A DNA stretch of 62,183 bases, taken from Bacillota bacterium. Lineage in GTDB: Bacteria; Bacillota; Dethiobacteria; DTU022. The notes beneath the pieces were generated by a model, which saw nothing but the letters and a program-made list of their open reading frames with translations, was not told where the DNA came from and made no database searches. Location: assembly GCA_051748565.1 (NCBI GenBank), contig JBNJHN010000004.1, positions 1 through 62,183 on the forward strand. Direction: 5' to 3'. A program made the position numbers and the translations under genes. This document shows positions 18,025-57,701 of this stretch, piece after piece. Positions within the stretch are counted from its first letter, which is position 1; each line of letters opens with the position of its first letter.

Positions 18025-18026
18025 AA

Positions 18027-24435: not shown

Positions 24436-24574
24436 ATATGCAGGAACATTTTTTAGAACATCCCTGTCGCACCCTATTGCAGGATTACTTCAATAGTTTA
24501 AAGAATAAATTCTAAGTTGATCAAAATAATCTCATTAATTAAAAAATATGCAATTCGCTGGATGGAGGGATATC

Positions 24575-26203: not shown

Positions 26204-26246
26204 ACATATATTTTAACATTTAACTTAGACTTACGAGGGGGATAAA

Positions 26247-38401: not shown

Positions 38402-38430
38402 TTGACAAGTCAAAATAGATGATCAATAAT
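38402..38430 (+). promoter_or_regulatory. candidate promoter with no protein gene behind it for ~460 nt
   Basis: TTGACA - 17 nt - AATAAT. Confidence 0.4.
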
Positions 38431-38437
38431 GTTCTTG

Positions 38438-38726
38438 CCAGGTTCCGAGAGACTGGATAGCGAACCGGATCCGGTTCGTGGGGCAAACCGAAGTGGAGGA
38501 AGGACTTACCGGAATCCGTGTGAGGATATTCCCCAAGGCCGGATTGCTGATAAAACTGGATAAATGAAGGTTTGCAGACCGGATTTTACCAGAATAATCA
38601 GCACAGGAGATTAGTAGCAGCCAGGAGGTTGAGTGAAGACCATCCAGAGGAGATGGCGGAAACTCAGCTGCAGACAGGCTCGCGAAGAAATTCTGTCGGT
38701 TGGTTAAAAGGCCTGTTGGAACCTGG
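38438..38726 (+). other. candidate structured RNA / long leader of unknown class
   Basis: CCAGGTTCC (38438-46) is perfectly complementary to GGAACCTGG (38718-26), and TTTAATT follows. Nested helices include CGAACCGG/CCGGTTCG (38461-78), GCTGAT/ATCAGC (38546-51/38597-602) and CCATC/GATGG (38640-56). No convincing ORF or RBS is present. Confidence 0.3.
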
Positions 38727-38767
38727 TTTAATTATGTACTCATATACACCTGGATAAGTCGTTTTCG

Positions 38768-38797
38768 TTGACACCCATATTCAGTCAGTGATATACT
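38768..38797 (+). promoter_or_regulatory. extended -10 promoter of the NuoEF-fusion operon
   Basis: TTGACA - 18 nt (ending TGA) - TATACT, i.e. TGnTATACT, about 95 nt upstream of ATG 38892. Confidence 0.55.
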
Positions 38798-38891: not shown

Positions 38892-41273
38892 ATGGAAAAC
38901 GATGTACTCGTCGAGTCAATTATCGAGCAGTACAATCATGACCCTGCCAAGCTGATTATGGTACTGCAGGATATTCAAACCAATCTTAACTATCTTCCAG
39001 CCGAAGCTATCGATCAAGTTGCAAAAAAGTTGAACCTCCCCAAATCTTATATTTATTCGGTAGCTACTTTTTTCAAATCCTTTTCTTTGCAACCCCGTGG
39101 AAAACACAAAATTAACATCTGCGAAGGCACTGCCTGTCATATCAGGGGCGCTTCCCTTTTGATGAGCAGCATTTCAGACGAGTTCAAGGTTAAACCGGGC
39201 CAAACTACTAACGATGGGCAGTTTACTTTGAATTCGGTTCATTGCGTTGGGGCCTGTGCCATGGGCCCTGTAGCCATTATAGACGGTGAGTATCACGGCA
39301 ATATGACATCGGCAAAACTGACAAAGCTAATTGGTGATCAATGTTCGTCGGAGAAGGAAGATTCCCTGGAGACGTCATCAGCTGAAGATGACAGCGTCAT
39401 CACAAAGCTGCCTTATAAAATAGGAGTGCGCTCGCTGGAGGATTATGAAATGCTCCGGGAACAAATCCGAGTGCAAAATCCACCCGATCAACCGCGTATT
39501 CTTGTCTGCACAGGAACAGGCTGCCTGGCCCGGGGCAGCATTAAGGTTGCTTCAGCACTCGAAAAAGAACTTGTCGCAGCCGGAATTGAGATGCCGGTTA
39601 AAATTGGTTTAAAAAAAATCGGCTGCCACGGGCTCTGCGAGAGAGGACCACTGGTCATATTCCACCCTTCCAAGCTCTGCTATACTCGCGTTGTCCCTGA
39701 AGATGCCGGCGCTATAGTCCGGGAAACAGTATTGGACGGTAAGGTTATCGACCGCCTTTTATACCGTGACTCGCCTGACAAGCCGTCAATCGAAAAATAC
39801 ACTGAAATTCCCTTTTACGCTTCTCAAAAAAAGGTAGCCCTGCGTCATGTCGGTCTGATTGATCCCCTTGATATGGGCGACTATATCGCCCATGGCGGTT
39901 ACAGAGCCCTGGTAAGGGTTCTAAATCACATGCATCCCGAAGAGGTTATTGCCGAGGTTGAAAGCTCACACCTGCGCGGGAGGGGAGGCGGAGGGTTTCC
40001 AACCGGCTTAAAATGGAAAAGTGCTGTCTCAGTCAATGCCGATACCCGATATGTCATTTGTAACGGTGATGAAGGTGATCCCGGAGCATTTATGGATTGC
40101 AGTATTATGGAAGGAGATCCTCATGCCGTAATTGAAGGAATGCTGATCTGCGCTTATGCCATCCAGTCTTCTTTGGGCTATATTTATGTCCGTGAAGAGT
40201 ACCCTCGTGCGCTGAAACGGATGCAGCTGGCTCTCGAGCAGGCTTACCGGTACGGATTCCTTGGCAGCAATATTTGCGGCACCGCGTTTTCTTTCGATAT
40301 TAAAATTATTCGGGGAGCCGGCGCATTCGTCTGCGGTGAATCAACCGCCCTGATGCAATCTGTAGAAGGTAAAGTAGGCGAACCCCGGGCCAAGTATATT
40401 CGCTCCGCTGAACGCGGGCTTTATGATAAGCCAACGGTTTTAAATAACGTTGAAACTTATGCCAATATACCGATTATAATTGAGAATGGAGCAGATTGGT
40501 TTGCTTCATTTGGATCTGAAAACAGCAAAGGGACCAAGGTTTTTTCCGTAGTGGGCAAGGTAAAAAATACCGGATTAGTTGAAGTGCCAATGGGCACAAC
40601 GCTGAGATCAATTATTTATGAGCTCTGCGGAGGAATACTCGACGGCAAACAGTTTAAAGCAGTCCAGACCGGAGGACCGTCTGGAGGATGCCTGCCTGCT
40701 GAAAAGCTCAATCTGCCGATTGACTTTGACAGCCTGACCAGGGAAGGCTCAATGATGGGGTCCGGCGGCATGATCGTGATGGATGAAAACACCTGTATGG
40801 TTGATGTAGCCCGTTATTTTACAGACTTCTTAACCCGGGAATCATGCGGGAAATGCGCAGCTTGCCGTTTGGGTTTGGAACAGCTGCATACAGTTTTAGA
40901 AAATATTTGCAACGGCAAGGGCCAAAGTGGTGACCTGGAAATAATCGAGAAACTGCTCAAAGTCCTGGAAAAAGGGTCCCTCTGCGGACTGGGTAAGTCG
41001 GCACCAAATCCCGTACGCAGTACTTTAAAGCACTTCAAACATGAATACCTGGCCCATATTGAAGACAAAAAATGCCCTGCAGGCGTATGCCGCAACTTAA
41101 TAAGCTACGAAATTAACGAGCAATGCACCGGATGCCGACGTTGTTTGCGACTCTGTCCTCAGGATGCAATCAGCGGAGAAAAGAAAGAGCTGCACTTTAT
41201 TGACCAAAATCTTTGCAACCGCTGCGGTATATGTAAGTCCGTATGTAACTTTGACGCAGTCGAAGTTCATTAA
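38892..41273 (+). CDS. fusion protein: NuoE/HydC-like + Trx-like [2Fe-2S] + NuoF/HydB-like (FMN/NADH) + 2x[4Fe-4S]
   Basis: 793 aa. CEGTACHIRG..CVGACAMGPV, then LVCTGTGCLARG..GCHGLCERGP, then HLRGRGGGGFPTGLKW, CNGDEGDPGAFMDC and ESCGKCAACRLG. The C-terminus has CTGCRRCLRLCP and CNRCGICKSVC. It is a paralogue of residues ~280-1065 of ORF 26247. Confidence 0.9.
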   Translation: MENDVLVESIIEQYNHDPAKLIMVLQDIQTNLNYLPAEAIDQVAKKLNLPKSYIYSVATFFKSFSLQPRGKHKINICEGTACHIRGASLLMSSISDEFKVKPGQTTNDGQFTLNSVHCVGACAMGPVAIIDGEYHGNMTSAKLTKLIGDQCSSEKEDSLETSSAEDDSVITKLPYKIGVRSLEDYEMLREQIRVQNPPDQPRILVCTGTGCLARGSIKVASALEKELVAAGIEMPVKIGLKKIGCHGLCERGPLVIFHPSKLCYTRVVPEDAGAIVRETVLDGKVIDRLLYRDSPDKPSIEKYTEIPFYASQKKVALRHVGLIDPLDMGDYIAHGGYRALVRVLNHMHPEEVIAEVESSHLRGRGGGGFPTGLKWKSAVSVNADTRYVICNGDEGDPGAFMDCSIMEGDPHAVIEGMLICAYAIQSSLGYIYVREEYPRALKRMQLALEQAYRYGFLGSNICGTAFSFDIKIIRGAGAFVCGESTALMQSVEGKVGEPRAKYIRSAERGLYDKPTVLNNVETYANIPIIIENGADWFASFGSENSKGTKVFSVVGKVKNTGLVEVPMGTTLRSIIYELCGGILDGKQFKAVQTGGPSGGCLPAEKLNLPIDFDSLTREGSMMGSGGMIVMDENTCMVDVARYFTDFLTRESCGKCAACRLGLEQLHTVLENICNGKGQSGDLEIIEKLLKVLEKGSLCGLGKSAPNPVRSTLKHFKHEYLAHIEDKKCPAGVCRNLISYEINEQCTGCRRCLRLCPQDAISGEKKELHFIDQNLCNRCGICKSVCNFDAVEVH

Positions 41274-41290
41274 TGGGAGAAAGGGTAACT

Positions 41291-44200
41291 ATGTCAAAAA
41301 TAATTAACCTGACTATAGACGGGCGAAACGTGGAAGCTGAAGATAAAACCATGCTGTTGGAAATATTGAACGATCAGGGAATTTTTGTTCCCCAGCTGTG
41401 CAGCTATCCATCGCTGACCCCAAATGGGGCCTGCAGGCTCTGTATGGTTGAAATTTCTCAAAAAGAGTGGCAGGGCAAATCGAAGATCGTTGCTTCCTGC
41501 CTGTATCCGGCCGAAGAAGGTCTATCCGTTTCGACCCGGTCAAAAGATGTCCTAACAATCCGCAGGACCATGCTCGAGCTTTATATGGCCCGCTGCCCCG
41601 ATTCAGAAGAAATCAGAAACATAGCCCGCCTGGAAGGGCTGGATGATACTCCTTTCCCGATCAAAGAAAAAGCGGACAAATGTATAATGTGCGGGTTATG
41701 CACCCGGGTTTGCCAGGACTGCGGCCCCGGAGCAATATCAACAATGAGCAGGGGAATCGACAAGCATATCGGGCCGGAACTCGCCGGGGCAGCCGAAAAC
41801 TGCACCGGCTGCCGGGCGTGCGCATATATCTGTCCGACCGATGCCATTCCTATCAGCCAGAAAGATCAAACCCTGACCATATGGGACCGCAATTTTGAAA
41901 TCCCAATCTGCGAGGTTGAAACAGAAAAGTGCCGGGGGTGCGGAATTTGCGAAGAAGTTTGCCCCTATTCGATACCGAGGGTTAATCTCTTTAAAAACAG
42001 GCCCAGTGCCGCTTATATTTCACCATCCACCTGTACGGGATGCGGAATATGTGCCGGTTCATGCCCTAGCGGCGCCATAAGCCAGGTAAAAACAGGTTTG
42101 TTAAATGATTATGAAACGGGACTGTTCAAAAAAGATTTAACGGGTAAAACGATCATTTTTAGCTGCCCGCGTTCACCATTGCCATCAGGTGACGATAATA
42201 TCATTCAGGTCAGCTGTATCGGCAGTGTCGATATTTCTTTACTTCTTTATGTTATTGCCGCCGGGGCAAAAGGAGCTGCCCTGATGTGCAGGGATAAACT
42301 TACCTGCCCTTACCGGCGGGGTGGTGAAAATGGCAAAAAGACGTTAGAGGTTGCTAAAAATCTTTTAAAGCTATGCGGTATTGGGGAGGAGAGGGTAGCT
42401 TTAATCGAGCCCGAACCGGGCCAGGACGGTCCAGCCAGAGCCTGGCAGCAGTTCGCCGAATCGGTTTCGCTCTTTCCACCGCTTCTGCAAGAATATTACT
42501 TAGCTTCTGCCGTAAAAACCTCCGGTCTGGATCTGGCCCTTGACCTGGTTGATTGGTTGAAAAACCGACCGGAATTACGGCCTTCCCTGCCCGTTGAAAT
42601 CGAAGCAGTTTTTACACAAACCTCCGAAGAAAGTCCATACTTGCTCTACCTGGACCGCCTGCCGGAACTGCACCTGATTTTTCCACTGGTCCTTGACCAG
42701 CCTGTTGTTATCGATATACTGCAGGATACATCCAGGCTGCTTAAACAGAAGAATATTCCAGTCAGATGCGTTTTTACAGAAAAAGAGCTGCAAAAAGATA
42801 AGCAGTCAAAGATAATTACCTATACGAAACCTGATCATATTACCCTGCCCCCGGCAGCCGAGGTAATTACTCTCAATAAACTGGCCGGATTGCCGGAAGC
42901 AATAGAAGAGGAAAGATTTTCTTTTTCCGTCAATACATCCGCACGCAGAGAACTTAATGAAGCTCTTAAACACAGCGGTAAAATACCGATTGTATCCACC
43001 CCGGAGCTTTACCTGCAGTATGCCCTGCTGATGCGCCCCGGTTCCTGGCAAGAGTGTTTGAAAGAAAAACCGGTTCTCGAATTCACAGCAGTTTTAAGTC
43101 CAACTGAAAAGAACAAAGATCATCATTTAAAACTGCGCCGCATTAAACAACATCCTATCCTGCCGCCTCTTAACCGCGATGAATTAACATTTACCTTTAA
43201 TAAAATTCCTATAACGGCTTTGAAAGGCGAAGTAATTACTTCCGCCTTATATGCAGCGGGCATCACAATTTTTGGTCACCATCCCAGGGACGGTGGGGCA
43301 CAGGGCATTTACTGTGTTAATGGTCAGTGCTCCCAGTGCATGGTGATCGCCGATGGAACGCCGGTGAAAGGCTGTATGACGCCTGTCACTGAGGGCATGC
43401 ATGTAGAAAGCCTGGAAGGTTATCCGGTGCTGGCCGATGATACTGTGCTTTCAGAATATACAACCAAACCTTTGGAAGTTGAAACAGAGGTGTTGGTAAT
43501 TGGCGGCGGTCCGGCCGGTATCAGTGCTGCAATCGAATTGGGCAATGTTGGTGCCGATGTTCTGATTGTTGATGACAAACAGGAACTGGGCGGTAAGCTC
43601 AGCCTGCAAACTCACAACTTTTTTGGTTCTGTTAAGGACTGCTATGCCGGCTATCGTGGGATAGATATCGGGCATATCCTGGCCGAAAACGCTCACAAAC
43701 TTCCCACGGTAAAAATATGGCTAAATTCTACGGTTGTCGGTGTTTTCAGTGATGGCAAATTTGGAGTATCCACCGGCGGAACCTTCAGGCTGGTAAAGCC
43801 CCGGCGAACCCTTTTTGCTACCGGAGCACGTGAAAAAAGCCTTGCTTTTCCCGGCTGTGATCTTCCCGGTGTATACGGAGCCGGTGCCTTTCAGACTCTC
43901 GCTAACAGGGATCTTATCCGTTGCGCTGAAAAGCTGTTCATAGTTGGAGGCGGCAATGTCGGTCTGATTGGCGCTTACCATGCCCTGCAGGCCGGCATCG
44001 ATGTGGTCGGCCTGGTTGAAGCTCTTCCGCAGTGCGGGGGTTACAAGGTTCATTTAGATAAGATTAAACGAATGGGAGTCCCGGTTATGACCTCACATAC
44101 AGTTTTGAGTATCGAAGGCGGTGAGAATGTAGAACGTGTGGTCATAGCAGCCGTGGATGATAAATTTCAGCCGGTTGCCGGTACCGAGCGTGCCTTCGAG

Positions 44201-45223
44201 GTAGATACTGTTCTAATTGCAGTTGGCCTGAGTCCGGTTGACGAACTGATGCAAAAAGCAAACCAGTACGGTCTCGATATTTATGCCGCGGGTGATGCCA
44301 AAGAAATTGCGGAAGCTTCGGCAGCAATTTTTTCCGGAAAAATAGCCGGTAGGAGAATAGCCCAGGCAATTGGCTTAGACCTGCCTGTCCCCGGCAACTG
44401 GGAAGAATTCGGTGAACTTTTAAAACATCATTCTGCCGATGCTGTTGATTTTCTGGCTGAAGACAGGGAAGACCCGGTTTATCCCCTGATCCGCTGTGTT
44501 CAGGAAATTCCCTGCAACCCCTGTATTGAAGCCTGTCCACAAAAATGCATTACCATGACTGATTCGATTCTCGATCTCCCAACATTCAATGAGCAGTGCA
44601 TCGGCTGTGGGAACTGTGTTCTGGCCTGCCCCGGCCTGGCTATAAATCTGGTACTGAACGACTACGATCCGAATCAGGAAAAGGCCCTGTTGATGCTGCC
44701 CTATGAATTTAATCTCGAAAAAATTCCTTTCGATCAGGAAGTATCCACTACCGACCTCAACGGAGAGATGGTAGGTAAGGGAAAGGTTGTAGCTTATAAA
44801 GAAAGGGAATCTCAAAACAGCAGAGTTCTCCTGCTCGTGGAAGTTCCCCTGGAAGACAAGCTTAAAGTAGCCGGTTTTAAAATCAGGGAGATCGATCCCG
44901 GCATAAAACTTGAAACTGCTGCCAGTGAAGAAGATCCGATTGTTTGCCGCTGTGAAAGAATCAGGAAAAGTGAAATTGTAAATGCAATACACAGGGGAGT
45001 ACGGGATATGAACCAGCTCAAAGCGGAGGTTAGGGCTGGACTGGGGGCCTGTAACGGTAAAACCTGCACCGAGCTAATTTTAAGAATTTTTCGTGAGGAA
45101 GGGATTCCATTTTCCGAAGTTACTATGCCCACTCACAGGCCGCTAGTTTCTGAAGTCCACCTTGGTGATTTTATCACGCTCAATAATCTATGTCCCGATC
45201 AGCGAACAGAGGAGACCGGATAA
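41291..45223 (+). CDS. mega-fusion: NuoG-N-like [2Fe-2S] + 3-4 [4Fe-4S] motifs + MvhD/FlpD-like domain + ~255-aa unknown region + HcnA/SoxA-N-like [2Fe-2S] + FAD/NAD(P) oxidoreductase + [4Fe-4S] domain + BFD-like [2Fe-2S]
   Basis: About 1310 aa. ATG 41291 lies after GGGAGAAAGGG; ATG 41273 in TAATG is an alternative start. Motifs in order: CRLCMVEI; CIMCGLCTRVC; CTGCRACAYICP; CRGCGICEEVCP; CTGCGICAGSCP; IIFSCPRS..VSCIGSVD..LMCRDKLTCPY (MvhD-like); CVNGQCSQCM; VLVIGGGPAGISAA; FIVGGGNVGL; CNPCIEACP..CIGCGNCVLACP; IVCRCERI..GLGACNGKTC. Confidence 0.85.
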   Translation: MSKIINLTIDGRNVEAEDKTMLLEILNDQGIFVPQLCSYPSLTPNGACRLCMVEISQKEWQGKSKIVASCLYPAEEGLSVSTRSKDVLTIRRTMLELYMARCPDSEEIRNIARLEGLDDTPFPIKEKADKCIMCGLCTRVCQDCGPGAISTMSRGIDKHIGPELAGAAENCTGCRACAYICPTDAIPISQKDQTLTIWDRNFEIPICEVETEKCRGCGICEEVCPYSIPRVNLFKNRPSAAYISPSTCTGCGICAGSCPSGAISQVKTGLLNDYETGLFKKDLTGKTIIFSCPRSPLPSGDDNIIQVSCIGSVDISLLLYVIAAGAKGAALMCRDKLTCPYRRGGENGKKTLEVAKNLLKLCGIGEERVALIEPEPGQDGPARAWQQFAESVSLFPPLLQEYYLASAVKTSGLDLALDLVDWLKNRPELRPSLPVEIEAVFTQTSEESPYLLYLDRLPELHLIFPLVLDQPVVIDILQDTSRLLKQKNIPVRCVFTEKELQKDKQSKIITYTKPDHITLPPAAEVITLNKLAGLPEAIEEERFSFSVNTSARRELNEALKHSGKIPIVSTPELYLQYALLMRPGSWQECLKEKPVLEFTAVLSPTEKNKDHHLKLRRIKQHPILPPLNRDELTFTFNKIPITALKGEVITSALYAAGITIFGHHPRDGGAQGIYCVNGQCSQCMVIADGTPVKGCMTPVTEGMHVESLEGYPVLADDTVLSEYTTKPLEVETEVLVIGGGPAGISAAIELGNVGADVLIVDDKQELGGKLSLQTHNFFGSVKDCYAGYRGIDIGHILAENAHKLPTVKIWLNSTVVGVFSDGKFGVSTGGTFRLVKPRRTLFATGAREKSLAFPGCDLPGVYGAGAFQTLANRDLIRCAEKLFIVGGGNVGLIGAYHALQAGIDVVGLVEALPQCGGYKVHLDKIKRMGVPVMTSHTVLSIEGGENVERVVIAAVDDKFQPVAGTERAFEVDTVLIAVGLSPVDELMQKANQYGLDIYAAGDAKEIAEASAAIFSGKIAGRRIAQAIGLDLPVPGNWEEFGELLKHHSADAVDFLAEDREDPVYPLIRCVQEIPCNPCIEACPQKCITMTDSILDLPTFNEQCIGCGNCVLACPGLAINLVLNDYDPNQEKALLMLPYEFNLEKIPFDQEVSTTDLNGEMVGKGKVVAYKERESQNSRVLLLVEVPLEDKLKVAGFKIREIDPGIKLETAASEEDPIVCRCERIRKSEIVNAIHRGVRDMNQLKAEVRAGLGACNGKTCTELILRIFREEGIPFSEVTMPTHRPLVSEVHLGDFITLNNLCPDQRTEETG

Positions 45224-46395
45224 TGCCTTCTCAAGATAATTACGATGTTATTATTATTGGCTGTGGCAGTGTTGGTAATCCAACTGCATTTCAGCTTGCC
45301 CAGGCCGGTTTAAAGGTTCTCGTAATCGACCGACGTGCTTCTGCCGGTCAGGGTGATAATAAAACAGCTATAGGAGGAGTCAGGGCTACTCACTCCGATC
45401 CCGGTAAGATTTCAACCTGCCTTGACAGTATCGAGATCTTCTCGACCTGGAAAGAAAAATACGGCTTTGATATCGGTTGGAAACCCGGAGGATATTGTTT
45501 CCCTGTTTATGATCATAATATCGAGACCACCCTAAAAAATCTGATTCCATATCAACAAGACTGCGGAATGAGAATAGATTGGGTCGGCCCGGATCGGATT
45601 AAAGAATTGATCCCGGGTATTGTCACTGAAGGACTACGCGGTGGAACTTATTCGCCCGACGACGGCCAGGTTTCCTCAATATTAGCGCCGATCGCATTCC
45701 AGCGTGAAGGAGAAAGACACGGCGTAGTATATCACTTTAACGAAAAAGTAATCGGTTACTTAAAAACAGGAGGCAGGGTAACCGGTGTGAGGACAAATAT
45801 AAATAGCTACAGTGCCGATTGGGTGGTTTTGGCAGCCGGAGCCGATGCTGCAGAACATTCTTCCCTGCTTGACATAGAAATCCCAGTTGTGCCGGATTCA
45901 CATGAAGCCGGTATTTCCGCACCCATTGAACATTTCCTGGCACCTTTGGTTGTAGATTTACGTCCCGGTCCTGAAGGCAAAACTGATAATTTTTATTTTG
46001 GCCAGAACAAAGAGGGCCAGATTATTTTCTGTTATACTCCCAAAGAACTATTTATCAGCACAGACCGGGAATCATTATCAGAATTTTTACCCATCCTGGC
46101 CGGAAGGTTGATTTCACTTATTCCCAGGCTTAAAAACCTCCTGATCCGCAGGATCTGGCGCGGCTGTTATCCAATGTCTCCTGATGGGGTGCCAATTATC
46201 GATTTTGCTCCCGGCGTTGAAGGCCTAATTTTAGCTGTCGGCATGTGCGGTCAGGGCTTGATGCTTGGGCCGGGAGTGGGTAAAAACATAACGGCAATGA
46301 TTACAACCGGCCACTCATGTCTCACTGACGAAGCCCATAGCTGTTTCCGTTATGATCGCGATCTCGAGAGAACAAAAACAGATACCCTTAAGTAA
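45223..46395 (+). CDS. DAO-family FAD-dependent amine/amino-acid dehydrogenase (SoxB/HcnC/proline-dehydrogenase-beta-like)
   Basis: 391 aa from ATG 45223, which overlaps the upstream stop in TAATG with a GAGGAG RBS. The N-terminus YDVIIIGCGSVGNPTAFQLAQAG is the dinucleotide fold. It is a paralogue of ORF 50908..52065. Confidence 0.85.
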   Translation: MPSQDNYDVIIIGCGSVGNPTAFQLAQAGLKVLVIDRRASAGQGDNKTAIGGVRATHSDPGKISTCLDSIEIFSTWKEKYGFDIGWKPGGYCFPVYDHNIETTLKNLIPYQQDCGMRIDWVGPDRIKELIPGIVTEGLRGGTYSPDDGQVSSILAPIAFQREGERHGVVYHFNEKVIGYLKTGGRVTGVRTNINSYSADWVVLAAGADAAEHSSLLDIEIPVVPDSHEAGISAPIEHFLAPLVVDLRPGPEGKTDNFYFGQNKEGQIIFCYTPKELFISTDRESLSEFLPILAGRLISLIPRLKNLLIRRIWRGCYPMSPDGVPIIDFAPGVEGLILAVGMCGQGLMLGPGVGKNITAMITTGHSCLTDEAHSCFRYDRDLERTKTDTLK

Positions 46396-46578: not shown

Positions 46579-47394
46579 CTAATGATCGCAGAGTTTGCCG
46601 TATATTTCAGGTTTGCGATCTGTAAGAAATGGGTAAGTTTCGCCTTCTTTAAGCAATCTATCTGAATAGCTGAGATCTACATCTCTTACAAGAAGACCCT
46701 GTTCCCTGTTCATTTCAGCTAAAATCTGCCCTTTGGGAGTCACAAATCGGCTGCGCCCTAAAAATTGATCCTCGCCAAAACCCCCGGTTTGATTTGAAGT
46801 TATTACCCACACCCCATTTTCTAAAGCTCTTGAAAGGGTACTCATATCATAAACGTAAGATCTTTCTGACTTATTCCATGCAGCCAGAACACAGATTACT
46901 TTTATTCCTTCAAGCGCCAGAATGCGGGCAGATTCCGGAAAAGCGATATCATAACAGATTAGAACCCCGAATTTATTTCCCCTATAATTAAACGATAGTG
47001 GTTCTGAAGCTGCTTTAGAATACTTAACCTCATCACTGCCCATGCGGCAAAGGTGAAGTTTACCTCCGGTTTTTTGTGTGCCATCAGGCTGAAAGAGTAT
47101 GGCTCCGTTTATTGGTTTATCACCTTTCGGCAGGGGAATACCGGCAACAATAAAAATATCAAGCTGCTCAGATAGACGGGCCAAAGTTTTCAGGGTAAGA
47201 CCATAAGCTTCAAGGGATCTATGGGTTAATTCATCACCTATGAGAAACCCGGTATTAAATAGCTCCGGAAGCAGAGCGATACCTGCTTCCTGGTCACGAC
47301 ACTTTTCGAGCAGCTTTTCTGCAGTCAGCAGATTTTCTCTCCAATTGTTAATATTACATTCCATCTGCACTGATGCAATACGCACTGTGGACAA
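46579..47394 (-). CDS. carbon-nitrogen hydrolase (nitrilase superfamily amidase)
   Basis: 271 aa. It shows the Glu-Lys-Cys triad contexts LLPELFNTGF, GKLHLCRMG and VLICYDIAFPE. Confidence 0.85.
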   Translation of the reverse strand: MSTVRIASVQMECNINNWRENLLTAEKLLEKCRDQEAGIALLPELFNTGFLIGDELTHRSLEAYGLTLKTLARLSEQLDIFIVAGIPLPKGDKPINGAILFQPDGTQKTGGKLHLCRMGSDEVKYSKAASEPLSFNYRGNKFGVLICYDIAFPESARILALEGIKVICVLAAWNKSERSYVYDMSTLSRALENGVWVITSNQTGGFGEDQFLGRSRFVTPKGQILAEMNREQGLLVRDVDLSYSDRLLKEGETYPFLTDRKPEIYGKLCDH

Positions 47395-47412
47395 TCTTTA
47401 AAAACCCCTCAT

Positions 47413-47883
47413 TCATTTAACTTCATCGTATTTACCGGACAGACTGTCGATTAAATATTTTCCGGAACCCTGCTTGCTACCGACCCAGATAATTTTATGA
47501 GCCGATACTTGCTCAATCGGGTACATATCCGGAACCAGCAAAATCAAATGCTTTCTCATCAGGAACTTCAGGAATCTTCTCCGGACCACTTTTAATGCCT
47601 GGGCATCGTTTATTAAACTCGGAACTATGGCCTGAGGAGAAACTTCCCACTGCTCGGTTTCAGGAATAGAATCCGCCCTGGCGGCAACCCCTCGGGAGAG
47701 GTCTACCGCCAGGATGTCATCTATTAACTTCGACTTTCCCAATAACCTTTTCAGCTCTGCTTCCATATGATACACCACGAAAGGATAAAAGAGAGCACCT
47801 AAGTAGTCATCATCTTTCAGGTTAAGAGTTTCCCTTGTTACCTGCGGTGCAATTACGGCAATGCTGATCAGGTTATCGTTCAT
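47413..47883 (-). CDS. hypothetical protein, no family recognised
   Basis: A 156-aa ORF tightly packed between the symporter and the C-N hydrolase genes on the same strand (gaps of 33 and 18 nt), with a GGAG-containing RBS. No motif is recognised. Confidence 0.55.
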   Translation of the reverse strand: MNDNLISIAVIAPQVTRETLNLKDDDYLGALFYPFVVYHMEAELKRLLGKSKLIDDILAVDLSRGVAARADSIPETEQWEVSPQAIVPSLINDAQALKVVRRRFLKFLMRKHLILLVPDMYPIEQVSAHKIIWVGSKQGSGKYLIDSLSGKYDEVK

Positions 47884-47916
47884 TGTTTAAATAGCTCCTT
47901 TTTCAGCTCGATTCGG

Positions 47917-49509: not shown

Positions 49510-49601
49510 TATTTCTCACCCCCAAAGAAAAACCAGGCCAGAGTTATGATTACCGAACCGAAAAACATGACCAGCAAAAGAGCCATTCCCTGTCCTACCA
49601 A
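49509..49601 (-). CDS. 30-aa single-span membrane peptide, probable symporter small accessory protein (not in the ORF track)
   Basis: On the minus strand: GGAGGAG - 7 nt - TTG GTA GGA CAG ... = (M)VGQGMALLLVMFFGSVIITLAWFFFGGEK. Its TAA overlaps the symporter ATG (TAATG). Confidence 0.5.
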   Translation of the reverse strand: MVGQGMALLLVMFFGSVIITLAWFFFGGEK

Positions 49602-49690
49602 ATAAATCTCCTCCTTAAAAAATGATCCATTTATTTCTCTAACTTGACTTTTGTCTAGAGGAACATAACCACCTCCTATGCCCGGAGAAA

Positions 49691-50692: not shown

Positions 50693-50907
50693 GAATGAAC
50701 ACTCCTATCAATGTTATATTGTGATTAAAAGAATTTTACGTTTTTAAAGGAATTAAGGTCTAAACATTTGAAAAACAATAGAAACATAATTCAATAAAGT
50801 TCCTCAATATCCTTTTTTTTGACAGAGGCTTCTTGCTAATCATTTATAAATATATCTGTTGTTGGTTCGCCGGCTATATAAATTGTAATATGCCTTATTA
50901 GTTTAGG

Positions 50908-54382: not shown

Positions 54383-54411
54383 TTGCATTCGTGATATTAT
54401 TCAGATAGAAT
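54383..54411 (+). promoter_or_regulatory. candidate promoter of proC-proB-proA
   Basis: TTGCAT - 17 nt - TAGAAT, about 40 nt upstream of ATG 54450. Confidence 0.45.
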
Positions 54412-54449: not shown

Positions 54450-55274
54450 ATGAAAAAGGATAAAATTGGCCTGATAGGCTGCGGTGCAATGGGTTCGGCG
54501 CTTGCAAAAGGTATGATCGAAAAGGGAGAAGTTGATCCCTCTTCAGTCTATTTGTACGATCTCAGCGAAGAAAGAAAGGAGCTGCTGGCTTCTGAATTAA
54601 GAACCAACGCAGCTAAAAGTCTATCCGAATTTATCCCAGAGTGTCGTGTTATCTTTATTGCCGTTAAACCTCAGGACGCTGAAGGGCTTTTATATTCGCT
54701 TAAGCCCATGGTTCAACCTGAGCAAATATATGTTTCGATAGCCGCCGGAATTACTATAAGCTTTATTGAAAGCTGTCTCTATGCCGGAACTAAAATTATA
54801 CGTTTAATGCCGAATACACCCTGCCTGATCGGGGAAGGGGCGATTGTAATAAGTACGGGGGAAGCAGTGACCGATGAGGAACGCGTATGGGTGGAAAAAC
54901 TGCTTGAACCTTTGGGTTTAACAATTCGTTTACCGGAATACCTGATGGACGCTGCCACCGGTATAAGCGGAACCGGTCCGGCATACGTTTACCTTTTTAT
55001 TGAAACCATGATTGATGCAGGAGTATCGGTTGGTATAAGAAGGGATGTTGCATCAAAGCTGGTTATTCAAAATGTTATTGGTGCCGCAAAAATGTTAAAT
55101 GTTAATACAAAACATCCTGCAGAGCTGCGTAATATTGTTACTTCCCCTGCCGGGACAACCAGTGCGGCTATGTATGTTCTTGAAGAATCAGGTTTTCGCA
55201 GCTGTCTGCTGAAAGCTGTTATTGAAGCTACCAGACGGGCGGAGGATTTACGACGTGGACACATTACAATATAA
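54450..55274 (+). CDS. proC: pyrroline-5-carboxylate reductase
   Basis: 274 aa. IGLIGCGAMGSALAKG, RLMPNTPCLIGEG and VTSPAGTTSAA are present. Confidence 0.92.
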   Translation: MKKDKIGLIGCGAMGSALAKGMIEKGEVDPSSVYLYDLSEERKELLASELRTNAAKSLSEFIPECRVIFIAVKPQDAEGLLYSLKPMVQPEQIYVSIAAGITISFIESCLYAGTKIIRLMPNTPCLIGEGAIVISTGEAVTDEERVWVEKLLEPLGLTIRLPEYLMDAATGISGTGPAYVYLFIETMIDAGVSVGIRRDVASKLVIQNVIGAAKMLNVNTKHPAELRNIVTSPAGTTSAAMYVLEESGFRSCLLKAVIEATRRAEDLRRGHITI

Positions 55275-56397
55275 ACCTCTTTCTAAATCATACCCGAGTC
55301 CCTGCCGTATAACAGTTAAAGTAGGAACCAGGCTGCTGACTCATCATACAGGAAAGCTAAATCTCGGCTACATGGAAAGACTGGTCCGAAAACTTTCCGA
55401 CCTTCGCAACGAAGGCCATGAAGTAATATTGGTTACTTCAGGCTCTATCGGTGCCGGAAGAGGAAAGTTAAATATTGCAAGAAAGAAAATAACTATTCCT
55501 GAGAAACAGGCCATTGCTGCTGTGGGACAGGGACTTTTACTTCAGATTTACGAAAAACTTTTTTCTGAATATGGATTGGTAGTCGGGCAAATACTGCTTA
55601 CCCGCAGCGATCTGGTAAGTAGAAGGCGCTATATAAATGCCTGCAATACCGTAATTACCCTTCTGAAGCTTGGTGTCATTCCCATTATCAACGAAAATGA
55701 CTCTGTATCCATAGAAGAAATAAAGTTTGGTGATAACGATCGTCTTTCCGCCCTGGTCGCCGGGTTGAGTGACTCCAACCTCCTGATTGTTTTAACTGAC
55801 GTAGACGGCCTCTTCAACGCCAATCCCAGTAAAAATCCCGATGCAAAGTTGATTCCGTTTGTCGATAAAATTGACAAAAAAATTAAAGATGGGGCGGAAA
55901 GTTCAAATGATGATCTGGCAACAGGGGGGATGATAACCAAGCTGCAGGCTGCTGAAATAGCTACAATGTCGGGAATACCGATGTACATAACCAATGGTTC
56001 AGACCCGGATGTTCTGTCCCGAATAATCAGTGGAGAGCATGTGGGAACATACTTTAATCCCCAGGAACATTATCTTAACAGGCGTAAACGGTGGATTGCT
56101 TACGGGCAAATCGTTAAAGGAAAAGTGAGTATAGACAGTGGAGCCTGCGATGCTCTCAGCCGTGAAGGAAAAAGCCTGCTGCCGGTTGGTGTAATAGCAG
56201 TTGAAGGCTCTTTCAGCAGCGGCGACCTTGTTGCCGTTGTCGATTTGGAAGGAAATGAACTCGGACGGGGTTTAAGTAACTTTTCTTCAGAAGAACTTGC
56301 CCTTATTCAAAAGAAACCCAGTGTTGAAATCGCCGGTATTATAAACCGCCCCTGTTCTGAAGAAGTCATTCACCGTGACAACCTGGTAATTTATTAA
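55255..56397 (+). CDS. proB: glutamate 5-kinase (with C-terminal PUA domain)
   Basis: ITVKVGTRLLT, VTSGSIGAG, PIINENDSVSIEEIKFGDNDRLSA and a PUA-like tail are present. GTG 55255 lies 8 nt after GGAGGA. The track start 55222 lies deep inside proC. Confidence 0.9.
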   Translation: MDTLQYKPLSKSYPSPCRITVKVGTRLLTHHTGKLNLGYMERLVRKLSDLRNEGHEVILVTSGSIGAGRGKLNIARKKITIPEKQAIAAVGQGLLLQIYEKLFSEYGLVVGQILLTRSDLVSRRRYINACNTVITLLKLGVIPIINENDSVSIEEIKFGDNDRLSALVAGLSDSNLLIVLTDVDGLFNANPSKNPDAKLIPFVDKIDKKIKDGAESSNDDLATGGMITKLQAAEIATMSGIPMYITNGSDPDVLSRIISGEHVGTYFNPQEHYLNRRKRWIAYGQIVKGKVSIDSGACDALSREGKSLLPVGVIAVEGSFSSGDLVAVVDLEGNELGRGLSNFSSEELALIQKKPSVEIAGIINRPCSEEVIHRDNLVIY

Positions 56398-56421
56398 CTA
56401 TTGCGTCAGGAGCTGAATTTC

Positions 56422-57675
56422 ATGCATTCAGAGGTGTTGGAAAAATGTGAGCAGGCCCGACTGGCCGCAGCTTACCTGGCCGGCTGCTCCACAACCATAA
56501 AGAACGATATTATTAACGATTTAGCTGATTCCCTATTAGAAAATACCGATACGATTATCGCAGCGAATAAAATCGATCTTGAAAATCTGAAGCAGAAGAA
56601 TAATTATACGGAAGCCTTTTATGACCGCCTGCTATTAAATGAATTACGCATTAAAAGTATGTCTGAAGGTTTGGTCGAAATTGCAAAGCTTGAAGATCCA
56701 ATCGGAGCAGTCACAAAAATGTGGAAGCGCCCAAATGGTCTGCTAATCGGCCTGCAGCGAGTTCCAATCGGTGTAATCGGAATAATTTACGAAGCCCGCC
56801 CCAATGTGACTGTCGATGCAGCCGGCCTGGCTTTGAAAGCGGGCAATGCCGTAATCTTAAGGGGCAGTTCAGAAGCGATCCATTCCAATAAAGCCCTGGT
56901 TAAAGTAATGCGGAACCGTATCGCAGCCTATGATCTGCCTAAAGGGTCATTAGCATTAATTGAAGATACAAATCGCAGTGCTGCCAATGACCTGATGAAG
57001 GCGAACGGCTATATCAATCTGCTTATCCCCCGCGGTGGAACTTCACTGATCAAGTCTGTAATAGAGAATTCCACTGTTCCGGTAGTCCAAACCGGCGAAG
57101 GTAACTGTCATATTTATGTTGATGAAAATGCAGACCTTGAAATGGCCCTGGCTGTTACAGTCAACGCCAAGGTGCAGCGTCCGGGAGTATGTAATGCTAT
57201 TGAAACACTGCTTGTCCACAGGAATATTGCATCCCGCTTTTTACCGGAAACAATTTCAACCCTTAACAGCCTGGGCGTCGAAATCAGGGGCTGTAAAGAT
57301 ACAATGACTTATTCTACCTCGGTCAAACCTGCCCGGGAAGAGGACTGGGAAACCGAGTTTCTTGATCTTATCCTGGCCATAAAAATCGTCGAAAGCTTTG
57401 ACGAAGCCATTGCGCACATTAATTATTACGGAACAGGCCACTCAGAAGCAATAATAACCAAAGATTATAGTCGTTCTCTTGAATTTATAAACCGCATTGA
57501 TGCTGCGGCGGTTTATATTAATTCTTCTACCCGTTTTACAGACGGATTTGAATTCGGTTTAGGAGCGGAAATGGGGATCAGCACCCAAAAACTGCACGTT
57601 CGCGGTCCAATGGGACTGGAAGCATTAACTACCCTGAAATATATAATTTTTGGCTGCGGCCAAATAAGGGAATAA
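56422..57675 (+). CDS. proA: gamma-glutamyl phosphate reductase
   Basis: VPIGVIGIIYEARPNVTVDAAGLALKAGNAVILRGS, PGVCNAIETLLVH and GHSEAIIT are present. ATG 56422 lies 8 nt after AGGAG. Confidence 0.92.
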   Translation: MHSEVLEKCEQARLAAAYLAGCSTTIKNDIINDLADSLLENTDTIIAANKIDLENLKQKNNYTEAFYDRLLLNELRIKSMSEGLVEIAKLEDPIGAVTKMWKRPNGLLIGLQRVPIGVIGIIYEARPNVTVDAAGLALKAGNAVILRGSSEAIHSNKALVKVMRNRIAAYDLPKGSLALIEDTNRSAANDLMKANGYINLLIPRGGTSLIKSVIENSTVPVVQTGEGNCHIYVDENADLEMALAVTVNAKVQRPGVCNAIETLLVHRNIASRFLPETISTLNSLGVEIRGCKDTMTYSTSVKPAREEDWETEFLDLILAIKIVESFDEAIAHINYYGTGHSEAIITKDYSRSLEFINRIDAAAVYINSSTRFTDGFEFGLGAEMGISTQKLHVRGPMGLEALTTLKYIIFGCGQIRE

Positions 57676-57701
57676 AATGCCGGAAGGAGTTGAATATATC
57701 C

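Follow-up and report, generated by a model that had tools for sequence, protein, structure and literature searches.

In the BfuABC/HydABC family (FeFe- and NiFe-HydABC, NfnABC and WorABCSL), a third-substrate module feeds the BfuA subunit, and the third substrates are H2, formate, NADPH, aldehyde, CO or pyruvate. In the published mechanism, the third substrate acts as a mid-potential donor (PMC11829005). Bifurcating NuoF homologues are told apart from non-bifurcating ones by extra clusters, and none of the Bfu members listed has an amine/imine partner (PMC9304861). The heteromeric L-proline dehydrogenases form a second family (PMC4575208). The archaeal dye-linked enzymes are PDH1, an alpha4beta4 complex (Pyrococcus horikoshii PH1363/PH1364, PDB 1Y56), and PDH2, an alpha-beta-gamma-delta complex (Thermococcus profundus). 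Their alpha subunit has an NADH-linked activity, and their physiological acceptor is unknown.

Here, we analyzed a 62,183-nucleotide stretch of a Bacillota contig (JBNJHN010000004.1; hereafter the window), in which three consecutive genes, g1, g2, and g3, resemble parts of both families. The encoded proteins would represent an archaeal PDH/HcnABC/opine-dehydrogenase-type enzyme whose electron-transfer subunits are joined covalently to an entire Bfu (HydABC-type) core for NAD(H) and ferredoxin. Our preferred hypothesis, to which we give an even chance of being correct, is that the soluble g1–g2–g3 complex is an L-proline:delta-1-pyrroline-5-carboxylate (P5C) oxidoreductase of the Bfu family that couples to both NAD(H) and ferredoxin; this activity is inferred, without biochemical data. 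The first-pass annotation had stated that no such enzyme was known, and a literature search likewise found no paper on any Bfu or bifurcating enzyme whose third substrate is an amine/imine couple. If the hypothesis is true, strict anaerobes could gain or spend energy on proline. The features of the locus are as follows.

38437..38728, + strand: structured RNA of about 290 nt, directly upstream of the operon promoter; its functional membership in the operon is open
38768..38797, + strand: promoter of g1-g2-g3, TTGACA-18-TATACT with a TG extended -10, found by consensus scan
38892..41273, + strand: g1, BfuC-BfuB fusion, 793 aa (Pfam, NCBIfam, structure matches)
38892-39341, + strand: g1 NuoE-like [2Fe-2S] domain, residues 1-150, followed by a flexible linker
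39489-39761, + strand: g1 thioredoxin-like [2Fe-2S] domain, residues 200-290
39870-41060, + strand: g1 NuoF FMN/NADH core with [4Fe-4S], residues 327-723
41100-41270, + strand: g1 2x[4Fe-4S] ferredoxin domain, residues 737-793
41291..41917, + strand: g2 BfuA-like N-terminal domain, residues 7-215 (WorA 9mqx_A match, E 4.5e-37)
41909..42424, + strand: g2 2x[4Fe-4S] (C220-230, C254-264) and MvhD-like [2Fe-2S] (C298, C315, C339, C345), residues 213-384
42425..43120, + strand: g2 alpha/beta domain of unassigned family, without cofactor-binding Cys, residues 385-616
43139..45184, + strand: g2 C-half, residues 623-1304, in which counterparts of the non-catalytic subunits of heteromeric amine dehydrogenases are fused (Pfam, collinearity)
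45223..46395, + strand: g3, DAO-family FAD catalytic (beta) subunit, 390 aa (Pfam DAO, 7.6e-54)
54450..57675, + strand: proC-proB-proA, encoding P5C reductase, glutamate 5-kinase, and glutamate-5-semialdehyde dehydrogenase (NCBIfam)

Operon layout and domain composition

The open reading frames span 38892-41273 (g1, 793 aa), 41273-45223 (g2, 1316 aa), and 45190/45223-46395 (g3). Coupling through TAATG had been proposed at both junctions. The overlap at 45223 is real, but the one at 41273 probably does not hold: g2 is likely to start at Met7 (ATG at 41291), as judged from an upstream GGGAGAAAGGG ribosome-binding site, a database call of 1310 aa, and the consensus start MSxKI of the homologues, so that g1 and g2 would be spaced by 17 nt without a TAATG overlap. 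The extended -10 promoter recognized at the outset is more than a chance consensus match, since about 25 related loci hold a perfect TTGACA-18-TGnTATAAT at the equivalent position.

The domain identities and cofactor motifs of the three proteins are direct observations, as are the conservation of the fusion and its P5C-centered surroundings (see below), and all parts of the first-pass interpretation accessible to sequence analysis were borne out. In g1, Pfam and NCBIfam recovered every domain that the first-pass annotation had placed on this single chain (NuoE, Trx-[2Fe-2S], NuoF, and 2x[4Fe-4S]), in the order 2Fe-2S_thioredx twice (E 7e-57), Complex1_51K (3.5e-44), SLBB, NADH_4Fe-4S (4.6e-29), and two Fer4. 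The best solved match of residues 200-789 was WorB of the bifurcating WorABCSL enzyme (9mqx_B, E 2.4e-222), and residues 200-790 next matched other bifurcating B subunits (NiFe-HydB 7t2r_B; HydB 7q4v_B, 8a6t_B, and 7p5h_B; NfnB 9n5u_B). End-to-end alignment with WorB, HydB, and NfnB covers the N-terminal [2Fe-2S] and the C-terminal 2x[4Fe-4S], and none of 25 homologues deviates in the Cys/His ligands of C1, the Trx-like [2Fe-2S], B1, the H/H/C/C site, or either C-terminal [4Fe-4S], which supports the initial assignment of the NuoEF module to the bifurcating type.

These clusters bear on a rival explanation that we consider improbable, namely that there is no energy coupling, the NuoEF module being only an entry or exit for NAD(H), the extra clusters wires, and the complex a plain NADH:P5C or proline:NAD+ oxidoreductase. 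Non-bifurcating enzymes that contain NuoEF do exist (PMC9304861), and a nucleotide could also bind at the second invariant GxGxxG of the alpha-like domain in g2. However, the Trx-like [2Fe-2S], the H/H/C/C site, and the C-terminal 2x[4Fe-4S] ferredoxin-docking domain that g1 keeps invariant are missing from non-bifurcating homologues; moreover, proline oxidation by NAD+ alone is strongly endergonic, and P5C reduction by NADH only would duplicate ProC.

The N-terminal domain of g2 matches Fer2/Fer2_4 and Fer4 in Pfam and holds ligands for a [2Fe-2S] (C43/54/57/76) and two [4Fe-4S] (C137-147, C177-187), with these Cys invariant in 29 sequences. The His-ligated A3 motif is absent from this domain, with PF10588 unmatched in the Pfam search; BfuA of type 2 Bfu enzymes likewise has no A3 cluster. 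Residues 213-384, also with invariant Cys, match positions 572-746 of NCBIfam HdrA2, its C-terminal end. The MvhD/FlpD-like domain suggested for this region is supported by Pfam FlpD at 309-384 (4.3e-11) and by an AF2 model (pLDDT 85.6) that Foldseek matched to the MvhD chains 5odh_D, 8rvu_F, and 7bkb_F with probability 1.0 and TM 0.64-0.70. The segment of about 255 aa that could not be assigned initially remains so: residues 385-635 are a gap between Pfam domains, and residues 385-616, the least conserved part of the protein, have no Pfam match and, despite an AF2 pLDDT of 85.8, no convincing fold match in the PDB (best E 0.2). In hhalign, this domain matched the HdrD-like protein of split loci (see below) with a probability of only 22%.

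In the C-half of g2, Pfam identified Fer2_4 (636-714), Pyr_redox_2 (739-997), Fer4 (1079-1124), and Fer2_BFD (1223-1275). The corresponding motifs are the gamma/HcnA-like [2Fe-2S] ligands C681-X4-C686-X2-C689-X11-C701, GGGPAG (743-748) and a second GGGNVG (892-897) in the alpha-like FAD domain, a 2x[4Fe-4S] (C1075-1088 and C1109-1119), and the BFD-type [2Fe-2S] ligands C1225, C1227, C1260, and C1265. All are invariant in 29 fusions and 37 stand-alone C-half proteins and agree with those set out for the heteromeric flavin dehydrogenase family (PMC4575208). Structure matches were to SoxA and the PH1363 alpha subunit (residues 698-872 with 1y56_A). BLASTP bore out the reported collinearity with four small ORFs at 52055-54218, which align in the same order: HcnA-like with 623-716 (35% identity), Pyr_redox with 737-1046 (43%), Fer4 with 1072-1192 (33%), and A3/BFD with 1219-1304 (33%).

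Both HMM and fold evidence uphold g3 as the DAO-type catalytic flavoprotein. Its best solved relative is the P. horikoshii L-proline dehydrogenase beta subunit (1y56_B, E 1.4e-42, about 30% identity), with runner-up structures at 1e-17, 25 orders of magnitude behind. The DAO protein of the unfused set in the window, which shares only 26% identity with g3, fits 1y56_B better (2e-64); this and the low identity of g3 to 1y56_B weaken the case for proline as its substrate. A g3-type DAO gene comes after the C-half gene in 62 of 72 related loci.

Conservation and neighborhood of the triad

A search for the same genes elsewhere revealed that the fused architecture is a conserved family (about 93 clusters at 90% identity), with the g1-g2-g3 triad kept in 28 loci from MAGs and on 13 metagenome contigs; soda-lake Syntrophomonadaceae account for most of these. 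We also observed that the triad always lies within a P5C-centered locus, made up of HypD, ornithine aminotransferase, P5C dehydrogenase, a small RNA, g1-g3, proC, and sometimes proBA. Upstream of the triad are ornithine aminotransferase in 12 of 20 fusion loci (707 bits vs. a cutoff of 656), the hydroxyproline dehydratase HypD in 9 of 20 (1347 vs. 1100), and, directly adjoining, P5C dehydrogenase in three (770 vs. 648). proC directly follows g3 in half of the fusion loci with enough sequence (12/24), and also in L099 and L104. In the window, an inserted minus-strand block (46579-54218) parts g3 from proC-proB-proA, the genes conserved 3' of it, whose NCBIfam scores are 269, 450, and 589 bits (cutoffs 197, 186, and 289).

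The small RNA upstream of g1 is new and structured, with a conserved promoter of its own (TTGACA-17-AATAAT at 38402-38430), a fold z-score of -6.06, and no Rfam match at E<=1. Copies are present in 18 genome sources and on 28 metagenome contigs; in every case, ornithine aminotransferase or P5C dehydrogenase lies on one side and g1 or proC on the other. The consensus structure of the RNA has compensatory changes in 45 of 77 pairs, with 92.8% of cells paired. In metagenome contigs, g1-g3 form a cassette between this RNA and proC(-proBA); where they are missing, the RNA is followed by proCBA.

Other phyla contain split and partial versions, some beside a tungsten aldehyde oxidoreductase or proC. 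In four loci (L043, L044, L047, and L050), NuoF, NuoE, BfuA, C-half, and DAO are separate genes in one string, and split relatives also encode a GltD-like flavoprotein with a fused MvhD, together with an HdrD-like CCG protein. In distant phyla, the C-half and DAO genes are paired with proC (L075, L079) or with a tungsten aldehyde:ferredoxin oxidoreductase, which could oxidize glutamate semialdehyde, the open form of P5C.

This context narrows the 'proline/sarcosine/opine-type' substrate of the first-pass annotation to proline/P5C. It remains possible, though unlikely, that g3 acts on another amine (D-proline, hydroxyproline, sarcosine/N-methyl amino acids, pipecolate, or an opine) and that the proline genes are neighbors by descent. 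The substrate specificity of the family cannot be read from similarity; an opine dehydrogenase subfamily near archaeal L-ProDH is inactive on proline (PMC4575208), and g3 is a divergent member. In addition, a P6C dehydrogenase near the triad in L028 hints at pipecolate in some members, the aldehyde oxidoreductase neighbors would also suit formaldehyde from sarcosine, and a single family-level lineage supplies most of the supporting loci, so that some of the synteny may reflect common descent and not selection. Against this stand the five P5C-making or -using genes around the triad (HypD, OAT, P5CDH, proC, and proBA), the recurrence of the proC association in Proteobacteria, where ProC identity is only 35-37%, and the lack of any betaine, sarcosine, or opine gene conserved adjoining the triad.

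Proposed reaction and energetics

Proline/P5C as substrate, NAD(H)–ferredoxin coupling, stoichiometry, and physiological direction are all inferences. Electrons would be exchanged with P5C/proline at the g3 FAD and would pass, possibly through an interface flavin, to the g2 C-half (BFD [2Fe-2S], 2x[4Fe-4S], alpha-like FAD, and gamma-like [2Fe-2S]), then through the MvhD [2Fe-2S] and 2x[4Fe-4S] and the BfuA clusters of g2 to the B1–FMN–C1 site of g1, where NAD(H) is predicted to bind. From this site, a low-potential branch may lead via C1 and the C-terminal 2x[4Fe-4S] to ferredoxin.

The most likely run would be 2 NADH + P5C + 2 Fd(ox) -> 2 NAD+ + proline + 2 Fd(red), because the proline/P5C couple, near -120 mV, lies well above NAD; P5C could come from hydroxyproline, ornithine, or glutamate. 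In reverse, reduced ferredoxin could drive proline oxidation to NADH. However, further points count against the proline/P5C reading. Such a couple is at odds with the published Bfu scheme: with a mid-potential donor as third substrate, that scheme cannot run forwards with a couple above NAD, and NADH bifurcation to an imine and ferredoxin therefore needs a canonical flavin-bifurcation mode in the core, which is unshown for any Bfu enzyme. Furthermore, with proC adjoining, a second P5C reductase would seem superfluous.

The same complex and substrate could instead run the standard Bfu stoichiometry in reverse (NADH + 2 Fd(red) + 2 P5C -> NAD+ + 2 Fd(ox) + 2 proline), as a dissipative electron sink that conserves no energy, a role also proposed for the high-potential Rub-Bfu and Nuo-Bfu. 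No other mode fits the published scheme, where NAD and ferredoxin share the electrons of the A branch (PMC9304861, PMC11829005), and the promoter, with its perfect consensus, points to a high flux. We nevertheless regard it as quite unlikely: roughly 200-350 mV per electron pair would be wasted although a simple ProC is encoded next door, and there is no obvious selective reason for keeping 13-14 clusters and three flavins invariant.

Comparison with known systems

The Bfu family has the same cofactor ligand sets as the proteins described here. In WorABCSL of Acetomicrobium mobile (Bfu type 2, PDB 9MQX), WorB corresponds to g1 residues 200-790 and WorA to g2 residues 11-215 (E 4.5e-37). The locus differs from this family in that BfuC and BfuB form a single polypeptide, BfuA carries MvhD and an entire amine-dehydrogenase electron-transfer module as fused extensions, and the presumed third substrate, an amine/imine couple, has a potential far above that of NAD.

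PDH1 and PDH2 resemble g2/g3 in their DAO-type beta, Pyr_redox_2-type alpha, and small Fe-S subunits. However, identity is only about 30%, the subunits are here joined in one 1316-aa chain on a Bfu core, and the archaeal enzymes have no NuoEF link. The bacterial alpha4beta4gamma4 flavin dehydrogenases (LhpBEF for D-hydroxyproline, OdhABC/Oox/Nox for opines, and the HCN synthase HcnABC) share the three-module plan of g2–g3, as well as the gamma-type C-X4-C-X2-C-X11-C and the two ADP-binding motifs of g2. Unlike g1–g3, they are aerobic and respiratory-chain-linked and lack the 2x[4Fe-4S] insert, MvhD, and all Bfu parts; the spacing of the second [2Fe-2S] motif is 15-20 residues in these enzymes and 32 in g2.

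In MvhADG–HdrABC/HdrA2 and FlxABCD-type complexes, the C-terminal ferredoxin and MvhD part of HdrA2 resembles g2 213-384, whereas the flavin domain of g2 is SoxA/HcnB-like rather than HdrA-like, and the fusion form has no HdrB/C and implies no heterodisulfide chemistry. Finally, Etf enzymes (Bcd-EtfAB, CarCDE, and lactate dehydrogenase-EtfAB) split NADH between a high-potential organic acceptor and ferredoxin, or perform the reverse. Their analogy to g1–g3 is functional only, since the protein families are unrelated and the bifurcating flavin is the Etf FAD in one case and would be at the NuoF-type FMN site in the other.

Gene structure and the NAD(H)/ferredoxin core

The three open reading frames described in the first-pass annotation are present, and the domains expected in them (NuoF, FlpD/MvhD, DAO, Pyr_redox_2, and Fer2_BFD) were all found with Pfam and NCBIfam models. 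The genes, together called the triad, are:

38892-41273 (+), g1, 793 aa: two thioredoxin-like [2Fe-2S] domains, NuoF FMN domain, SLBB, NuoF [4Fe-4S] domain, C-terminal 2x[4Fe-4S]
41273-45223 (+), g2, 1316 aa as listed: N-terminal [2Fe-2S] and [4Fe-4S] of NuoG/HydA-N type, 2x[4Fe-4S], FlpD/MvhD (residues 309-384), a stretch silent in Pfam and NCBIfam (385-635), then Fer2_4, Pyr_redox_2, Fer4, and Fer2_BFD
45223-46395 (+), g3, 390 aa: DAO-type flavoprotein

The TAATG overlap reported at the g2/g3 junction is real; the one reported at the g1/g2 junction probably is not. There, g2 most likely starts at Met7 (ATG 41291), which leaves a 17-nt gap; this start is backed by a strong ribosome-binding site, a 1310-aa database gene call, and the consensus of homologues. 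The promoter-like site at 38768-38797 (+) is conserved, with a perfect TTGACA-18-TGnTATAAT at the equivalent place in about 25 related loci. By motif count, the three proteins would carry some 6-7 [2Fe-2S] clusters, nine [4Fe-4S] clusters, one FMN, and two FAD, with a possible interface flavin in addition.

The core of the BfuABC/HydABC-type electron-bifurcating (Bfu) family is recognizable in g1. A BfuB subunit is defined by a NuoF-like FMN/NAD(H) domain with the B1 [4Fe-4S] cluster, and g1 matches Complex1_51K, SLBB, and NADH_4Fe-4S (476 bits against nuoF_fam). BfuC, a NuoE-like protein with the C1 [2Fe-2S] cluster, corresponds to residues 8-148 of g1, a NuoE/HoxE-like domain fused at the N-terminus (E 5e-47 against the HoxE/NuoE models). 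In addition, g1 contains all of the BfuB-specific additions, namely the Trx-like [2Fe-2S], the B2 site, and the C-terminal 2x[4Fe-4S], which are missing from non-bifurcating NuoF homologues (Schut et al., PMC9304861). The following g1 ligands were invariant across the 25 homologues in which conservation was assessed:

C77/82/118/122: C1 cluster (NuoE-type)
C206/211/245/249: Trx-like cluster
C652/655/658/698: B1 cluster
H714/H722/C728/C733: B2/Zn-type site (Zn or 2Fe-2S)
C745-755 and C775-785: two C-terminal CxxCxxCxxxC sets

From residue 200 to 790, g1 can be aligned over the full length with B subunits of enzymes whose bifurcation is proven by structure and biochemistry. Among solved proteins, its best match is WorB of the A. 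mobile WorABCSL complex (9mqx_B, E 2.4e-222), a bifurcating tungsten aldehyde oxidoreductase (PMC12318220), followed by NiFe-HydB, three FeFe-HydB, and NfnB; with Complex I NuoF, the alignment is limited to the core. In Bfu enzymes, B1-FMN-C1 is the minimal bifurcating site, from which C1 shuttles low-potential electrons to B3/B4 and ferredoxin (Li et al., PMC11829005). About 50 low-complexity residues tether the C1 domain of g1 to the BfuB part, and we infer that such a linker would still permit C1 movement.

The g2 fusion and the dehydrogenase module

The third Bfu component, BfuA, is a [2Fe-2S] and [4Fe-4S] junction that feeds the core. It is found at residues 11-215 of g2, which match WorA (9mqx_A, 4.5e-37) and have invariant ligands. 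Given this WorA match and the absence of a His-ligated A3 motif, the Bfu part resembles type 2. Residues 213-384 are similar to the C-terminal ferredoxin and MvhD end of HdrA2 (NCBIfam), and when residues 280-640 were modelled with AF2 (pLDDT 85.6), fold comparison recovered MvhD chains at probability 1.0. The possibility that g2 is an HdrA homologue was rejected: g2 lacks the FAD domain of thioredoxin-reductase type, with its dedicated clusters, that defines HdrA, HdrA/HdrA2 models and 5odc_A cover only residues 208-377 (ferredoxin and MvhD), and the flavin domain of g2 matches SoxA, the PH1363 alpha subunit, and TrxR, not HdrA.

Residues 385-616 (nt 42425-43120) are the least conserved region of the fusion. 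AF2 predicts a confident alpha/beta fold (pLDDT 86) without cluster ligands; no Pfam family matches it, and a dedicated AF2 model has no fold neighbour in the PDB (best E 0.2). Descent of this unassigned domain from the HdrD-like CCG protein encoded at the same position in split loci, with loss of the Cys, was considered but is unproven (weak profile similarity, hhalign probability 22%, E 1e-3; BLASTP not significant). A search of 1.8 billion representative proteins found that the N-half of g2, middle domain included, also occurs as stand-alone proteins of 620-680 aa (P0121, P0122).

The C-half of g2 (residues 623-1304) is, as first annotated, collinear with four small ORFs at 52055-54218, at 33-43% identity (BLASTP). 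Its motifs were compared over 29 fusions and 37 stand-alone C-half proteins. The gamma-type motif C-X4-C-X2-C-X11-12-C is met by C681-X4-C686-X2-C689-X11-C701, and the ADP-binding motif of alpha subunits by a GGGPAG FAD motif at 743-748, both invariant in fusions and stand-alone proteins; a second GGGNVG and eight Cys for 2x[4Fe-4S] are also invariant. The BFD-type motif C1225-X-C1227-X32-C1260-X4-C1265 matches Fer2_BFD (Pfam) and has invariant Cys, although its X32 spacing exceeds the X15-20 of the published alpha-type [2Fe-2S] motif (C-X-C-X15-20-C-X4-C), which, like the gamma motif, was defined for L-proline, D-hydroxyproline, and opine dehydrogenases and for HCN synthase (PMC4575208).

The beta subunit of these enzymes, a DAO-family protein whose N-terminus has an ADP-binding motif, corresponds to g3, which covers positions 1-352 of the 353 in Pfam DAO. 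Its closest solved relative is the beta subunit of Pyrococcus horikoshii L-proline dehydrogenase (1y56_B, 1.4e-42), with the next matches at 1e-17. An amine other than proline or P5C (delta-1-pyrroline-5-carboxylate) remains a possible substrate, and the strongest caution is that specificity in this family cannot be predicted: an opine dehydrogenase clade near archaeal L-ProDH is inactive on proline (PMC4575208). Moreover, the DAO of an unfused gene set in the window is nearer to 1y56_B (2e-64) than g3 is; this DAO has only 26% identity to g3 (BLASTP). The parts, their cofactor motifs, and their covalent or operonic linkage are thus observed, and the substrate is inferred from gene context only.

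Distribution, neighbourhood, and an upstream RNA

A search for the same architecture showed that the fusion is a conserved family: clustering at 90% identity gives about 93 groups, which are 51-89% identical to g2. Full-length fusions were located at 28 loci in GTDB species genomes, nearly all of them Syntrophomonadaceae/Bacillota MAGs and many from soda-lake sediments; the 89% relative, from a Kulunda soda-lake sediment sample, keeps the upstream synteny. At all 28 loci, g1, g2, and g3 are adjacent and in the same order. Upstream of the triad are found ornithine-oxo-acid transaminase (OAT; 12 of 20 loci, equivalog score above cutoff) and trans-4-hydroxy-L-proline dehydratase HypD with its activase (9 of 20; 1347 bits, cutoff 1100), while proC lies downstream in half of 24 loci and P5C dehydrogenase (P5CDH) directly 5' in three.

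A further 28 metagenome contigs, located via a conserved RNA, display the general plan [HypD]-OAT-[P5CDH]-small RNA-{g1-g2-g3}-proC-{proB-proA}-nifV-like synthase-ROK kinase. On contigs without g1-g3, proC-proB-proA directly follow the RNA, which indicates that the triad is a cassette in a locus whose every enzyme makes or uses P5C. This P5C-centred neighbourhood is an observation; chance synteny by descent remains an alternative to a functional tie. The window differs from the plan in that an 8-kb minus-strand block separates g3 from proC; proBA follows proC. Just 5' of proC is a conserved promoter-like motif, TTGCAT-17-TAGAAT (54383-54411 (+)), shared with the proC-type loci L087, L088, L093, L096, L097, L106, and L107; it is part of a longer conserved stretch that may hold an operator. 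The nifV/homocitrate-synthase-type gene at 57690-58874 (+) (524 bits, cutoff 463) is 84-88% identical among relatives and always follows proC or proA; a role as a Re-citrate synthase that supplies glutamate synthesis is possible.

The C-half and a g3-like DAO (50-60% identity) are also widespread as a pair of genes in Myxococcota, Krumholzibacteriota, Desulfobacterota, Planctomycetota, and others. In Desulfobacterota and Gammaproteobacteria, the pair has a GntR/FCD regulator on one side and a tungsten aldehyde:ferredoxin oxidoreductase (AOR) on the other; at L075 and L079, it adjoins a true proC. An AOR gene lies directly 5' of g1 at L016 and L030. Such placement of AOR beside the dehydrogenase fits, by inference, glutamate-5-semialdehyde, the open form of P5C, as the AOR substrate. 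Among 28 loci that have the C-half only, 10 carry an OadA/PycB-like gene directly 5' of it, for which we have no explanation. In four loci from uncultured lineages, the modules are encoded in one gene string:

L043 3157-14106, L044 2799-15116, L047, and L050: unfused seven-gene version, with NuoF, NuoE, 250-aa BfuA, GltD-like flavoprotein fused to 2x[4Fe-4S] and MvhD, HdrD-like CCG protein, C-half, and DAO

This string, which also contains a gene for an OadA/PycB-like biotin protein, is an unfused, more elaborate form of the same machine and independently supports joint action of the modules. With its additional NfnB/GltD-like flavin and CCG protein, the machine may be more complex and could have two sites of bifurcation.

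The conserved RNA lies upstream of the operon:

38437-38728 (+): structured RNA, about 290 nt long, flanked by the tRNA-Trp terminator and the g1 promoter
38402-38728 (+): the same RNA with its own conserved promoter, TTGACA-17-AATAAT

Its fold z-score is -6.06, and the consensus structure from 38 distinct sequences comprises 16 helices with 77 pairs. Paired cells make up 92.8% of the total, vs. 26-50% with partners slid, and compensatory changes affect 45 of the 77 pairs, vs. 17-30 when slid; none of 500 shuffles reached these values. The RNA always lies between OAT or P5CDH and g1 or proC(-proBA) in soda-lake Bacillota (window, L001, L004-L006, L011, L013, L014, L017-L021, L023, L024, L027, L068, L081, and L082-L109). 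A known riboswitch or T-box was rejected, as no Rfam match appears at gathering score or E<=1. A 5' leader co-regulating g1-g3 and proC is disfavoured, since the RNA has its own promoter, a hairpin and U-runs follow it in some loci, and g1 and proC each have a separate conserved promoter. An independent small RNA gene is therefore more likely, and cis-regulation has not been shown. It is a candidate for a new RNA family tied to the ornithine/proline locus.

Other clusters in the window were also recorded:

46579-54218 (-): block inserted between g3 and proC, which sets the window apart from all relatives; contains an unfused five-gene PDH2/opine-dehydrogenase-like set (DAO at 50908-52065, A3/BFD, Fer4, Pyr_redox_2, HcnA-like), an unassigned 156-aa ORF, and a nitrilase/amidase-family gene
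49691-50692 (-): agmatinase-like ureohydrolase, same block
47917-49509 (-): PutP-like Na+/proline symporter, same block
22085-23482: YqeC/MobA-like cofactor genes, upstream of the Wor-Bfu pair
24548-31450 (+): P5C dehydrogenase (TIGR01236, 744 bits, cutoff 614), followed by a tungsten aldehyde oxidoreductase split over two Bfu fusion proteins
26247-29444 (+): first Wor-Bfu fusion, 1065 aa, AFOR_N, NuoE, Trx-[2Fe-2S], NuoF, 2x[4Fe-4S]
29444-31450 (+): second Wor-Bfu fusion, 668 aa, BfuA-like Fer2_4/Fer4, AFOR_C
2165-21694: purine/N-compound fermentation cluster with a 1447-aa double BcrAD/BadFG activase-like protein, family III CoA-transferase, AllH-/AllG-like oxamate carbamoyltransferase subunits, FdrA-like CoA-ligase protein, xanthine/uracil permease, PucR regulator, and three-subunit xanthine-dehydrogenase-type molybdoenzyme

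An opine or guanidino-amine is a possible substrate of the unfused DAO set. The split AFOR/Bfu pair (26247-31450) is an unusual Wor-Bfu architecture and may oxidise glutamate semialdehyde.

Proposed reaction and comparison with known bifurcating enzymes

We put forward tentatively, judging the balance to lie somewhat against it, the hypothesis that the triad encodes the first bifurcating enzyme acting on an amine/imine couple, with electrons from NADH divided by a NuoF-type (Bfu) core between P5C and ferredoxin. That NAD(H), ferredoxin, and a third substrate would turn over in a tightly coupled way is inferred, an FMN at the alpha/beta interface is likewise putative, and a plain NADH-linked enzyme also remains possible. 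Proline or P5C would react at the g3 FAD, and electrons would pass through the C-half clusters and FAD, then MvhD, then the BfuA clusters, to B1-FMN-C1, where NAD(H) would bind and from where a low-potential branch would lead to ferredoxin.

The P5C/proline couple lies near -120 mV; a literature search found no published value. At this potential, the couple lies above NAD, which leaves two stoichiometries. In the first, (A), NADH is the bifurcating donor: 2 NADH + P5C + 2 Fd(ox) = 2 NAD+ + Pro + 2 Fd(red). Because the mean acceptor potential would be near that of NADH, this reaction would be reversible and, run backwards, would amount to ferredoxin-driven proline oxidation. In the second, (B), the published Bfu scheme is reversed, and NADH and reduced ferredoxin are both oxidised to reduce P5C, in a confurcating sink. 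This would be strongly exergonic and non-conserving, as has been proposed for Rub-Bfu and Nuo-Bfu (PMC9304861), and (B) remains possible. We favour (A), since a reductase that merely dissipates energy would duplicate ProC and (B) leaves the invariance of all these cofactors unexplained; (A) has never been shown for any Bfu enzyme.

As for direction, soda-lake Syntrophomonadaceae are considered to use proline as a compatible solute (PMC6295475). This, the cassette position upstream of proC(BA), and the perfect consensus promoter lean toward P5C reduction. The P5CDH, GntR, and AOR neighbours in other loci are compatible with proline catabolism, and the enzyme may serve both directions.

If the hypothesis is correct, making proline from hydroxyproline, ornithine, or glutamate would return energy as reduced ferredoxin, and this would include proline produced in bulk as an osmolyte under hypersaline soda-lake conditions; in reverse, strict anaerobes could oxidise proline without a respiratory chain. 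The triad is a concrete candidate answer to a question that has so far been poorly answered, how fermenting or syntrophic bacteria without high-potential acceptors oxidise proline or, alternatively, avoid wasting the drop of about 200 mV in P5C reduction. Since the third substrate lies above NAD, the system offers a natural test of whether the Bfu flavobicluster can use NADH as the source for bifurcation, a point relevant to the disputed Bfu mechanism; a positive outcome would show that the core can run in the canonical mode, with NADH as bifurcating donor. The single-chain fusions (BfuC-B; BfuA-MvhD-gamma-alpha) also make it an attractive cryo-EM target.

The third substrates of Bfu enzymes listed by Schut et al. 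(PMC9304861) are H2O2, menaquinone, NADP, F420, H2, formate, pyruvate, CO, aldehydes, and benzoyl-CoA, and no amine is mentioned in the text of that paper or in a supplementary file. Literature searches likewise found no description of Bfu with proline, bifurcation with P5C, sarcosine oxidase with NuoF and MvhD, or HypD with NuoF. If the hypothesis holds, the short list of bifurcation-coupled ferredoxin reactions would be extended to amine/imine chemistry, and to proline metabolism especially. Each of the two modules is already known, as is the way Bfu enzymes are assembled from modules; the proposed class of third substrate and the fusion architecture are new.
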